DNA from: Candidatus Parcubacteria bacterium
GTDB lineage: Bacteria > Patescibacteriota > Patescibacteriia > UBA1558 > GWA2-36-10
Assembly (NCBI GenBank): GCA_018670855.1
Contig: JABHIT010000090.1
Location: 1-11,217, forward strand
DNA length: 11,217 bases
Direction: 5' to 3'
Shown here: piece by piece, positions 6,629-9,472 of the stretch
How the letters are laid out: each line of letters begins with the position of its first letter
Numbering within the stretch: the first letter of the stretch is position 1
Position numbers and translations under genes: made by a program
Notes under the pieces: model-generated
What the model was told of the DNA's origin: nothing
The model's input: the letters and a program-made list of their open reading frames with translations, nothing else
Databases searched by the model: none

Positions 6629-9472
6629 TTAGTCTTGACTGGAGTCACCACTGGGACGACGAGCCTCACGACGTTCGGTAGTCTTCCCGAGGATATCGGT
6701 GATCTGGGCCAGTGGAGTACCAGCAAAAATGCCAGCCAACACTTCGGCCACACTCTTACCACCAAAGATAGCCATCGGGGCCATAGCCTCAGCAGTCCGA
6801 GCCATCACGTCCTTGTCCGAGAATTCCTGCAGAGCAGCAATCAAGTCCGGAGTGATAGCCGCGGCCTTATCGACGATAGCCTTGACTTCACCCTCGAGCT
6901 CGGCTTTTGCGACAGCTAGCTTCTGATCGTCTTCAGCCTTGGTGCGAGCCAGTTCGGCCTCAGCCACTTGATTGAGTCCTGCTTGAGCGGCCACCTCGGC
7001 TTCACGACGAGCAGTTGCTACAGCCACTTCAGCTTCACAACCAGCTTTCTTTTCAGTTTCATCAAACTGACGAACAGCGGTTGTGTGTGCCTGATCAGCA
7101 TCACGCTTGGCTTTGCGAGCAGCCTCTTCGGACACAAAACGAGCGTCAGCCTCCTTGGCGGCATTGGTCACCTTGGTCAGGAGAGTCTGCAAAGCACGTC
7201 CGGCAGCAGCTTCGCTGAGGTTGTGATTGTTGAGGGCAGTCTTGTCCTCTTCATTGGCAATATCACGACTGATCTGCTCAAGTGCCTTGGTGTTTTCCAA
7301 ACCACGACGAGCAGAGGCCAGCTTGAGAGTTTGTTCGACAGTCTCGTGCTGAGACTCTTCGAGCATTTGAGCGATATCACTATCACCAATCTCAATTTGA
7401 CTGAATTCAACATCGTAGATACGCATGCCGTTTTCGTCAAACAAGCGTCCAGGACGATCACCATTTTTAGCACCTTCAGCACCATCACCCGAAACACCAA
7501 GGATGGCATCTCGTAAAATGTCGATGTAGCCAGCATGCAACTTTTCGATGCCATGCTGTTTGACGACATTGGCAACCAGCGAACGCAGATGATCCGTCAA
7601 GAACTTGACGAAGTTCTCGACATCAAACCACTTGCCTTCTTCTCCTTCGAAGTTGACCCGATAAGAAATCGGGATCCGTACACGGACAAAATCCGATGTC
7701 TCAGCTTCGATTTCATCAGAAATCTTGTTGTTGAGAACACGTAGGAAAACATCCTTGTGCAGATGGTCATCTGTCTTGGGAGTGCCAGTAGAAAGCTCAA
7801 ACACCTCAGGCTCTTCACCATACTCCAAAAGTACAGTCTGAGGACCAGTGATAATCCGGCTCTTTCCAGTCCTGTCTACCAATTTGACAGCATAACCAGT
7901 CCAAACACAGATTGCAACTGCACCATCAAACTTGGTGTCCAGCTGGATAGTCCGCGGCGGAGTATGCTGCGTCTTGCGAGCAAACTCTTCGGCAGCCATC
8001 CCATCTTCCGGCTGTTCATCAAAACGCGTCGAGCGCTTGGCTGATATACGACCTCGAGAAATCATACTGGATCCATCAACAGAACCACCAAGACTCTCAA
8101 CCTCACTATAAACATTGCCGTCAGTAGCTGACATCAAGTTCAAGTTGTAGCGTAGAGCAGCCTCGTTGCCAGGATAAAGCAATCCAACCAAGTTGGGATT
8201 GAGTACCCTCCGAACCACGACTTGGTTACGTGGATCCGGTAAAAACATCTTGGGGCCCTCGACCATCTTGACTGCGCCAGTCTCACGATTGAGTACATAG
8301 CGAGCTTCTCCATCCGGAATAGCTACAGCATAATGAATCTGCTGATCACCATAAGTGATGATACTATGTTCAGGACGAGGATAATAAATCCGTTGCTTCT
8401 TGCCGGTGATGAAAAGCTCTTGGCCTTCCTCGTAGTCAGTGCCACCATCCGAATAATCCTTGATTACCTTGACGTAGACACCCCAGTGCTCTTCCAGTTC
8501 GATTGCTCGGAACTTTCGAGACTTGGACTTGCCAGCAAAAAAGCGTTGAGTCGGCGTCGGGAAAACTACTCGTGGTCCCTGAACATACTCTTTGTCCCCA
8601 GACTCATCGAGTAGGATACAGTATTCGAGCTGCTCCAGAGTGACGGCCTCACGGACATAGTTGCCCCGACCATCTTCAGGAACTACCTCAATACCAGTTG
8701 GTGGGATATAAAAAGAAGCTTCCGTTCCCTTGATGATCATCAGTTGACCAGTGATCAACTCAGGAATACCTTCGGGCTCTTCCTCGACCACTTCATCCTT
8801 GATCGGCGGAGTCGGAGGAGTATTGGTAGGAGTGGTCTCCTGATCATTGCCTCCGGTATCATCACCGGAACCACTTTCTTGATCAGTAGAGTCCCTATCA
8901 TTCTCTCCTGGAGCAGGACTCACTTGCTTGGAGCCAACCTCGTCTTCGGTTGTCGAACCAGTAGCTTTGATTTCTGTAGCTACGGTTTGAGGTTTGAGGA
9001 CTTGCTGTTCCCAGTTCTTGGTGGCCTCTTCTGAGTTGACTACCCGTACCATCAGGTACTGATTTGTCCTCAACACATGACCATCAATGACCTCGGCAGA
9101 CTGCCCAGGATAAAGAGGGAATGTTGCTGGACCAGCAATGTTGACTGTCCGACCCATGTCGAGTTCGACAGCATCTTGCTTGCCCTTGTTGGGGTGTTCG
9201 GGAATTCCACCCTTTTCTTTGGCTGGGTTATGAAGGACAACGTATTGTCCTTCGCGAGCTGTTGGGCAAGCTACAATTGCTTCTTGCATATTGGCCTGCT
9301 CAAAACGTCCAGTGGCCTTGTCATAGGTCATCAACTGATCTGTCTCACCAAGACTTTGCTTGCTGGGACCGACCACGACTTGTACGCAGCCATTGGATCC
9401 ATCCTGCACCAAGGCATACTCACCTTGAGCCAGGATGAGATCTTTGCTTGTTCGCAAGTTTCTCTCCTCCAT
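6629..9472 (-). CDS. Major vault protein (MVP)-like protein, about 947 aa. It has N-terminal MVP repeat domains, an SPFH/band-7-like shoulder and an Ala/Glu-rich cap-helix coiled coil.
   Basis: ATG at 9472..9470 is preceded by GAGG with a 6-nt spacer. The track start 9502 is a TTG. The GP-x-x-[YF]-x-P motif recurs at VVVGPSKQSL, IAGPATFPLYPG, VQGPRVVFPTPT, VEGPKMFLPDPRNQVVV and ITGPQTVLLEYGEEPEVFELSTGTPK. FPLYPG is identical to a human MVP repeat motif, recalled from memory. The N-terminus EYALVQDGSNGCVQVVVGPSKQS parallels human MVP [23 protein letters not shown]. Residues 585-700 look band-7-like (FVRVRIPISYRVNFE). Residues 700-880 are EA/AE-rich heptad coiled coil. GC is about 55% versus about 35-42% in flanking genes. 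Confidence 0.8.
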   Translation of the reverse strand: MEERNLRTSKDLILAQGEYALVQDGSNGCVQVVVGPSKQSLGETDQLMTYDKATGRFEQANMQEAIVACPTAREGQYVVLHNPAKEKGGIPEHPNKGKQDAVELDMGRTVNIAGPATFPLYPGQSAEVIDGHVLRTNQYLMVRVVNSEEATKNWEQQVLKPQTVATEIKATGSTTEDEVGSKQVSPAPGENDRDSTDQESGSGDDTGGNDQETTPTNTPPTPPIKDEVVEEEPEGIPELITGQLMIIKGTEASFYIPPTGIEVVPEDGRGNYVREAVTLEQLEYCILLDESGDKEYVQGPRVVFPTPTQRFFAGKSKSRKFRAIELEEHWGVYVKVIKDYSDGGTDYEEGQELFITGKKQRIYYPRPEHSIITYGDQQIHYAVAIPDGEARYVLNRETGAVKMVEGPKMFLPDPRNQVVVRRVLNPNLVGLLYPGNEAALRYNLNLMSATDGNVYSEVESLGGSVDGSSMISRGRISAKRSTRFDEQPEDGMAAEEFARKTQHTPPRTIQLDTKFDGAVAICVWTGYAVKLVDRTGKSRIITGPQTVLLEYGEEPEVFELSTGTPKTDDHLHKDVFLRVLNNKISDEIEAETSDFVRVRIPISYRVNFEGEEGKWFDVENFVKFLTDHLRSLVANVVKQHGIEKLHAGYIDILRDAILGVSGDGAEGAKNGDRPGRLFDENGMRIYDVEFSQIEIGDSDIAQMLEESQHETVEQTLKLASARRGLENTKALEQISRDIANEEDKTALNNHNLSEAAAGRALQTLLTKVTNAAKEADARFVSEEAARKAKRDADQAHTTAVRQFDETEKKAGCEAEVAVATARREAEVAAQAGLNQVAEAELARTKAEDDQKLAVAKAELEGEVKAIVDKAAAITPDLIAALQEFSDKDVMARTAEAMAPMAIFGGKSVAEVLAGIFAGTPLAQITDILGKTTERREARRPSGDSSQD

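Follow-up and report, generated by a model that had tools for sequence, protein, structure and literature searches.

The MVP-like gene and its acidic segment

The window analyzed here is the complete stretch of 11,217 nucleotides of contig JABHIT010000090.1 from a Candidatus Parcubacteria bacterium (assembly GCA_018670855.1). Its minus strand carries, at positions 6629..9472, a 2.84-kb gene for a major vault protein (MVP) homologue, as indicated by the list of open reading frames (ORFs), Pfam, Foldseek and hhalign. The gene encodes 947 residues from the ATG at 9472. The subject of the present analysis is an acidic low-complexity segment of this protein, rich in proline, threonine, serine and glycine (8762..8965, minus strand; residues 170-237). 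It had been singled out in a first-pass annotation, and its coordinates and sequence were verified. The longest ORF extends further upstream (6629..9502, minus strand; 957 residues) and begins with a TTG at 9502. This codon is located 30 nt 5' of the ATG at 9472, which is the start given by NCBI and JGI; a third start is found in the NCBI record P0270 (951 residues). As the alignments of homologues favour the ATG at 9472, this codon is likely the true start and defines the numbering used below. The first-pass annotation numbered residues on the 957-residue ORF, i.e. all values are higher by 10 and the segment comprises residues 180-247. A 100% identical protein of 947 residues (P0001), which JGI names major vault protein, originates from a Candidatus Parcubacteria metagenome-assembled genome. 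The identical protein is present on four contigs, one of 113 kb, beside dnaG, rpoD and bipA.

The window protein is genuinely homologous to MVP. Pfam detected the family MVP_shoulder (PF11978) with an E-value of 2e-23 and 83.1 bits (cut-off 25), covering profile positions 2-118 of 118, and the family Vault_3 with an E-value of 2.9e-10 and 40.5 bits (cut-off 28.8); Vault_2 stayed below threshold. The MVP chains of rat, human and rabbit were matched by phmmer and by the family profile. For an AlphaFold2 model based on 105 homologues, the top 12 Foldseek hits were all vault cages (rabbit, human, rat) with E-values of 1e-30 to 1e-23. Below the cages ranked 3gnf and 3gf5, two crystal structures of mouse R1-R7 (E 7e-11), and then SPFH proteins. 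According to DSSP, the N-terminal repeat array of the model is composed of successive beta modules, and the cap-helix consists of helices 698-795 and 806-871. HMMER alone failed to align the N-terminal repeats to rat MVP, whereas profile-profile alignment succeeded: hhalign paired residues 276-915 with residues 273-845 of rat MVP (probability 99.4). The rat sequence used for all alignments is 100% identical to PDB 4HL8 chain A. With 45-70% identity to more than 100 homologues, the window protein is a full-length member of its family. NCBIfam and PADLOC gave no match across the whole protein.

The layout of the repeats deviates from the eukaryotic one, which comprises the nine repeats R1-R9: the bacterial protein possesses about seven. 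Residue 276 aligns to rat residue 273, the start of R6, and the first 275 residues, including a loop of 78 residues described below, correspond in the alignments to R1, to R2 and to a single repeat of the R3/R5 type (probability 70%). The occurrence of a single R3/R4/R5-type repeat in bacterial MVP-like proteins, compared with three in rat, bears on an origin of the eukaryotic repeats R3-R5 by triplication. With respect to vault RNA, no Rfam family reached its threshold in the 11.2-kb window, and the local gene context did not reveal an association with vault RNA, TEP1 or PARP4. In the literature searched, we found no report of an assembled bacterial vault particle.

Nucleotides 8965..8762 of the minus strand encode exactly 68 residues: ATGSTTEDEVGSKQVSPAPGENDRDSTDQESGSGDDTGGNDQETTPTNTPPTPPIKDEVVEEEPEGIP. 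Among these are 18 aspartates or glutamates and only 3 lysines or arginines, which gives a net charge of -15. Proline, threonine, serine and glycine make up 49% of the segment versus 22% of the remaining protein, and hydrophobic residues make up 9% versus 29%. This bias exceeds chance, because the binomial P-values are small (4e-5 for the depletion of hydrophobic residues, 2e-6 for the enrichment of P/T/S/G) and only few shuffles of the whole protein contained an equally extreme window of 68 residues (11 of 5000 and 4 of 5000, respectively). In the Uversky charge-hydropathy plot, the mean hydropathy of 0.34 has to be compared with a boundary value of 0.49, which places the segment in the disordered field.

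The segment is not an artefact of assembly or frameshifting, since its DNA is identical in two further independent assemblies (three in all, from different samples) and the protein is found on four contigs. The ORF is in frame throughout the segment and encodes conserved MVP sequence on both flanks; moreover, the GC content and the codon-position GC of the loop are similar to those of the remainder of the gene. Both full-length members of the 90% cluster carry the identical segment, i.e. there is no length polymorphism within the population. Up to an E-value of 10, no Pfam domain was detected in the segment except for a chance mucin-like match at E = 1. The segment contains no internal repeats, and at the protein level no 4-mer occurs repeatedly. 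A recent origin from tandem repeats was rejected, as Tandem Repeats Finder reported nothing but a 9-bp unit in 2.1 copies. Neither a signal peptide nor a transmembrane segment was predicted for the window protein, whose maximum 19-residue hydropathy is 1.37. On the opposite strand, an ORF of 96 codons (8744-9034, plus strand) overlaps the segment; it is unsupported and a by-product of the low-complexity coding on the minus strand.

The loop in the third repeat and in bacterial homologues

The structural model places the segment inside the third MVP repeat, in the loop connecting strands beta2 and beta3. The N-terminal part of this repeat (8990..9121, minus strand; residues 118-161) comprises the FPLYPGQ motif, beta1 (125-130), beta2 (138-144, QYLMVRV) and two short helices (147-157). 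The latter correspond to a short helical element EEAxKNWxxxVxKPQ, which is conserved in the family and specific to bacteria relative to animal MVP. Invariant or nearly invariant columns are F118, P122, Q124, N153, W154 and K160. The variable core of the beta2-beta3 loop follows (8774..8989, minus strand; residues 162-233); it was delimited by the predicted local distance difference test (pLDDT) of AlphaFold2 and by a gap-rich block that cannot be aligned. The pLDDT values are below 50 for residues 162-233, lie between 33 and 39 over residues 161-230, and DSSP assigned no secondary structure to residues 158-243 of the model. In combination with the charge-hydropathy plot, these values agree with the view of the first-pass annotation that a strongly acidic, disordered stretch of about this length exists in the repeat (barrel-wall) part of the protein, the latter being supported by Pfam and Foldseek. 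The C-terminal end of the loop (8759..8791, minus strand; residues 228-238, VVEEEPEGIPE) is semi-conserved. Here, the family consensus is approximately [VI]-K-P-D-E-E-[IV]-P-[DE], followed by an invariant L-T-x-G; among 120 sequences, P was found 105 times at position -2, D or E 100 times at -1, L 116 times at 0, and G 119 times at +3. The C-terminal part of the repeat (8648..8758, minus strand; residues 239-275, LITGQLMIIKGTEASFYIPPTGIEVV...) contributes the strands 244-248 (LMIIK) and 261-263 of the model.

For the N-terminal part of the family, hhalign aligned residues 6 to ~144 with rat residues 2 to ~126 (probability 70%, E 4e-5). In this alignment, FPLYPGQ is paired with F97PLYPGE103 of rat MVP, and QYLMVRV with beta2 of rat R3. 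If the loop is kept, the stretch TGQLMIIKG...YIPPTGIEVV behind it is paired with the strand 'TGEEWLV...' of rat R5; if the loop is excised, the same stretch is paired with rat R3 (E 0.006), and R3 alone then matches the bacterial repeat over its full length. In rat R3 and R5, the partner of the strand behind the loop is the second strand of the hairpin. Because the flanks in the model and the hhalign results put both anchors in an R3-type repeat, the segment is part of one repeat, bordered by beta2 with the helical element (138-157) on one side and strand 244-248 on the other. The earlier assignment to a position between two repeat domains is thus to be revised. A control model of the short-loop homologue P0035 showed the same succession of strand, two helices, loop and strand, with 13 residues of low confidence. 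Judged by these alignments, the loop appears to be the homologue of the beta2-beta3 hairpin in R3 of animal MVP, in a lengthened and disordered form.

The first-pass annotation had also proposed that the segment might be a lineage-specific module and had named an equivalent segment in other MVP homologues as the finding that would speak against this. Such a segment exists. The family is large (1191 cluster representatives at 50% identity match with E-values up to 1e-3), and in an alignment of 20 sequences every homologue has a gap-rich low-complexity block between ...NW..AV.KPQ and P-[DE]-L-T-x-G. Loop lengths were determined between fixed anchors for the 119 closest homologues (set 1) and for 147 representatives of clusters at 50% identity, including the window protein (set 2). 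In set 1, the loop comprises 15-64 residues with a median of 23, and 97% of the loops are net negative. In set 2, the median is 32 (5th-95th percentile 14-60), and 86% are net negative. Besides the window protein, seven members of set 2 have loops of at least 60 residues; the longest consists of 73 residues, their sequences are unrelated, and they belong to several unrelated lineages. With 78 residues between the anchors and a net charge of -16, the loop of the window protein is the maximum of a continuous distribution. Its charge per residue (-0.21) is about the same as the family median of -0.17.

Loop length carries no phylogenetic signal: the mean difference is 16.3 residues between nearest neighbours and 17.0 residues between random pairs. 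The comparison with P0002, a syntenic orthologue, illustrates how fast the sequence changes. The two proteins are 70% identical overall and 78-84% identical in the flanks, whereas identity in the loop is 32% with 19 gap positions, and the loop of P0002 is far less acidic. In the Parcubacteria homologue P0016, the loop is even net positive (+3). The loop of P0051 contains an obvious tandem duplication, which shows one route of loop growth. Two further homologues, P0211 and P0257, start near the end of the loop (query residue 242 corresponds to residue 2 and query residue 238 to residue 11, respectively); they may be fragments from contig edges, or else naturally occurring variants without the initial two and a half repeats. 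The loop is present in all bacterial homologues examined; a composition that is acidic and rich in P/G/S/T/A is kept, while sequence and length turn over rapidly. Hydropathy and charge, the lack of secondary structure, and rapid turnover under a constant composition together characterize the segment as an intrinsically disordered loop.

Explanations for the expanded loop

All other known versions of this loop are shorter than that of the window protein, which is an ordinary, rapidly evolving loop rather than a novel functional module. We consider it probable that the segment is an expanded, polyanionic surface loop which is constrained in composition but not in sequence, which has a generic role, and whose length results from drift. 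The loop is predicted not to fold, is anchored at either end on one and the same small beta domain, and has a net charge of about -15. As repeats, shoulder and cap-helix are all retained, it is plausible that the protein assembles laterally like eukaryotic MVP, which we deduce from homology. In such an assembly, the wall would bear a ring of flexible polyanionic bristles made up of these loops, at a distance of two repeats from the N-terminal (waist) end. Their likely effect would be generic: they would keep that part of the surface hydrated and negatively charged and would repel nucleic acids, membranes or neighbouring particles both sterically and electrostatically, with no specific ligand being recognized. 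The loop would continue the acidic, solvent-exposed beta2-beta3 hairpin of R3 and R4 in animal MVP. Most likely, the length of 78 residues represents the tail of a near-neutral drift of insertions and deletions, with only the composition under selection. Whether the hairpin in R3 points to the lumen or to the exterior is not stated in the vault structure literature searched. In vault structures, PARP4 makes its luminal contacts with Q164, R169, Q172 and D214. The interior has been called 'relatively smooth and acidic'. These data hint at best weakly at an outward orientation of protruding hairpins.

Several observations weigh against an explanation by drift and a generic role. The loop of the window protein is the single longest one among approximately 266 homologues, and those of its closest relatives that have long loops (P0002, P0003, P0005 and P0016) reach 55-64 residues; the three of these whose contigs were examined are found in contexts of Parcubacteria or, more generally, of the candidate phyla radiation (CPR) type. 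Given the length of the window loop and of these four relatives, some selection for loop length at the level of the lineage may have occurred. The conserved negative charge is a sign of function, and this function could be more specific, e.g. the binding of cations or of a basic partner. In addition, the values for the N-terminal mapping onto rat R1-R3 (probability 70%, E 4e-5) and for the isolated repeat (E 0.006) are modest, and the picture of a cage with a ring of bristles is, for bacterial MVP-like proteins, drawn entirely from homology.

Alternatively, the loop might be a lineage-specific interaction module, i.e. a disordered tether whose short linear motifs recruit cargo or a partner to the wall. 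Its location in an R3-type repeat fits this idea: in human vaults this region binds PARP4 by electrostatic complementarity, the acidic R3-R4 surface of MVP docking the MINT domain of PARP4 at its basic face. The negative charge kept throughout the family, the semi-conserved C-terminal end of the loop, and the extreme length in the window protein point in the same direction. However, a recruiting motif is hard to reconcile with a variable core that is not even conserved in the syntenic orthologue, and the long loops of other lineages are unrelated in sequence. The semi-conserved end motif also occurs in homologues with short loops and is therefore not specific to the expansion. Moreover, no partner gene is a conserved neighbour, as P0005 and P0016 are surrounded by other genes than those in the window. 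We consequently regard this explanation as unlikely.

Even less probable is a low-affinity, high-capacity binding of Ca2+ or Mg2+ by an expanded version of the acidic cluster that was once proposed to form EF-hands in R3/R4 of animal MVP. The 18 acidic residues among 68, the runs rich in D/E/N/G/S/T such as GSGDDTGGNDQE, and the structural position, which is that of the acidic hairpins Querol-Audi et al. thought 'could be able to bind Ca2+', would be compatible with such a role. A Ca2+- or metal-binding region had been suggested in the first-pass annotation as well, but canonical sites are missing: neither the EF-hand pattern PS00018 nor its relaxed variant nor DxDxDG matched anywhere in the window protein, and Pfam assigned no Ca2+-binding family. 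The crystal structures of mouse R1-R7 show neither an EF-hand nor a bound ion (PMC2752026). In addition, the much less acidic loop of P0002 and the net positive one of P0016 imply that such an acidity is not required.

A bolder proposal, to which we assign a similarly small probability, is a functionally selected ring of 68-residue polyanionic Pro/Thr-rich tentacles on a vault-like cage of Parcubacteria (CPR), with selection in this lineage acting on length and charge. If this were true, the tentacles could serve, for example, as a cation store, as a decoy that mimics nucleic acids, or as a docking brush for basic cargo, and the loop would be a functional elaboration by which this lineage had modified a prokaryotic vault.

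It is very unlikely that the loop is what remains, in degenerate form, of repeat domains that were lost. This idea is suggested by the repeat numbers (one R3/R4/R5-type repeat as compared with three, and about seven repeats in total as compared with nine in rat), by a global alignment in which the loop is opposite rat residues ~127 to ~243, and by the hhalign result that puts the half preceding the loop on rat R3 and the half following it on rat R5. Yet this split disappears upon excision of the loop, when the repeat aligns with R3 alone, and the loop itself, with 9% hydrophobic residues, has no residual pattern of a beta-repeat. As the loop comprises only 14-15 residues in many homologues and its length is without phylogenetic signal, a short loop is the simpler ancestral state, and the repeat would have been triplicated in the eukaryotic and cyanobacterial branch. 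Finally, for a mis-assembly, a frameshifted read-through or a fused non-coding spacer speaks nothing but the low-complexity composition, and the intact frame between MVP flanks, the identical DNA of three assemblies, the identical protein on the 113-kb contig and the inconspicuous GC values make the chance of such an artefact negligible.

By itself, the loop matters little. It demonstrates that bacterial MVP-like proteins can accommodate between 14 and 78 disordered residues in the beta2-beta3 loop of the third repeat; therefore, this loop is a natural insertion site, which would be useful if such proteins were engineered as cages. Negative charge at this position characterizes the whole family and is also a property of the acidic R3/R4 hairpins in animal vaults. 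The wider context is of greater interest than the loop: MVP homologues are abundant in uncultivated bacteria, including the ultra-small organisms of the CPR.

Other features of the locus and comparison with known systems

A second variable, disordered region of the window protein (7940..8110, minus strand; residues 455-511) belongs to the R8-like repeat and was identified by pLDDT values below 50 and a variable alignment block. All homologues have such a region, and in the hhalign alignment it faces the part of rat MVP that includes the unresolved loop 429-449. In the cap-helix, an extra segment of about 45 residues (ARFVSEEAARKAKRDADQAH...EVAVA; residues ~773-819, encoded at ~7016-7156 on the minus strand) is shared with P0002 only; P0003 has a different insertion nearby, and the AlphaFold2 helix is broken at residues 796-805. 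If a cage is formed, a longer cap-helix would alter the geometry of the cap.

The neighbours of the MVP-like gene are bipA, genes for an HI0933-like flavoprotein, an SDR protein and a GT-C-like membrane protein, dnaG and rpoD. The gene of the multi-pass membrane protein, which gave sub-threshold PMT_2 and GT-C-type hits, is encoded on the minus strand at 9735-11168 and continues beyond the end of the window (549 residues in L001:2431-4080). It is located 263 bp upstream of the MVP-like gene on the same strand, and a gene of 549 codons occupies the equivalent place in the orthologous contig L003; no GT-C/PMT_2-like gene was called next to P0005 or P0016. An ORF of 57 codons (6378-6551, plus strand) is convergent to the MVP-like gene and lies 78 bp past its stop codon; gene calling recognized it in L001 and L002, and L003 likewise has a called gene of 57 codons at the same position. 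A further observation concerns base composition: the MVP-like genes have a GC content of about 51% (48-55% at third codon positions) in genomes of 33-37% GC. In the window, the MVP-like gene has 50.5% GC, and its neighbours have 28-42%. This anomaly recurs in the syntenic orthologue (L003:2991-5777; 70% amino acid identity) and in a non-syntenic homologue from Parcubacteria (L004:8001-10712). A single recent horizontal transfer does not account for its persistence.

Among the known systems, the closest counterpart of the loop is found in animal MVP. No other loop in the repeats of mouse and rat MVP varies as much as the beta2-beta3 loop, from which, in R3-R5, a hairpin rich in solvent-exposed acidic residues protrudes; the former 'EF-hand' regions are these hairpins, and no Ca2+ site was found in them (Querol-Audi et al., PMC2752026). 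The animal loop (residues 130-146 in R3 and 181-197 in R4 of rat and mouse) is located at the same place as that of the window protein, behind beta2 and before the strand equivalent to 'GDEWLF', and is likewise acidic, solvent-exposed and the most variable of its repeat. It consists of about 14-17 residues, however, and forms an ordered beta-hairpin, whereas the loop of the window protein comprises 78 residues, of which about 72 are predicted to be disordered. Further differences are the bacteria-specific short helical element in front of the loop and the number of such repeats, which is three (R3-R5) in animal MVP and one in the bacterial protein.

In rat and human MVP, disordered loops exist at residues 429-449 (R8) and 608-619 (shoulder); none of the solved vault structures includes them. 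They are unstructured, like the loop of the window protein, and are tolerated in the wall of the assembled cage; unlike that loop, they sit in a different repeat, are about 12-21 residues long, and are not markedly acidic. Residues 455-511 of the window protein are the direct counterpart of the R8 loop. The notion that canonical repeats are free of such loops, which underlay the first-pass annotation, holds in so far as an equally long disordered stretch is absent from this position in every eukaryotic MVP; it is too strict with regard to the variable beta2-beta3 loop and its acidic hairpin in R3-R5, and it does not apply to the two disordered loops of rat and human MVP.

Acidic 'entropic bristle' segments and Pro/Thr-rich linkers are characterized by a high net charge, low hydrophobicity, an abundance of P/T/S/G, and a composition that is conserved while the sequence drifts. 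The segment of the window protein resembles the bristle class in charge, in hydrophobicity, in its P/T/S/G content and in the conservation of composition over sequence; it differs in that it is a closed loop anchored twice on one domain and neither a linker between domains nor a free tail. The analogy to the O-glycosylated PT-linkers of secreted enzymes fails, and an O-glycosylated Pro/Thr-rich linker was rejected, since the window protein has no export signal such as a signal peptide and the adjacency of a glycosyltransferase gene is not conserved.

The family itself, whose members are also annotated as 'SPFH domain-containing' proteins, has been described in silico (Daly et al. 2013, PMC3762200; Sokolskyi 2019, bioRxiv 10.1101/872010). 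The window protein shares with this family the anchors of the loop, its acidic low-complexity composition, and the second variable loop; it differs by the loop length, which is 78 residues versus a median of 23-32. Its host belongs to the Parcubacteria (CPR), whereas the preprint of Sokolskyi discusses gliding Myxococcales, Cytophagales and Oscillatoriales. The loop of the window protein is an extreme case of a known feature in an already known family of bacterial MVP-like proteins and not a new type of feature.

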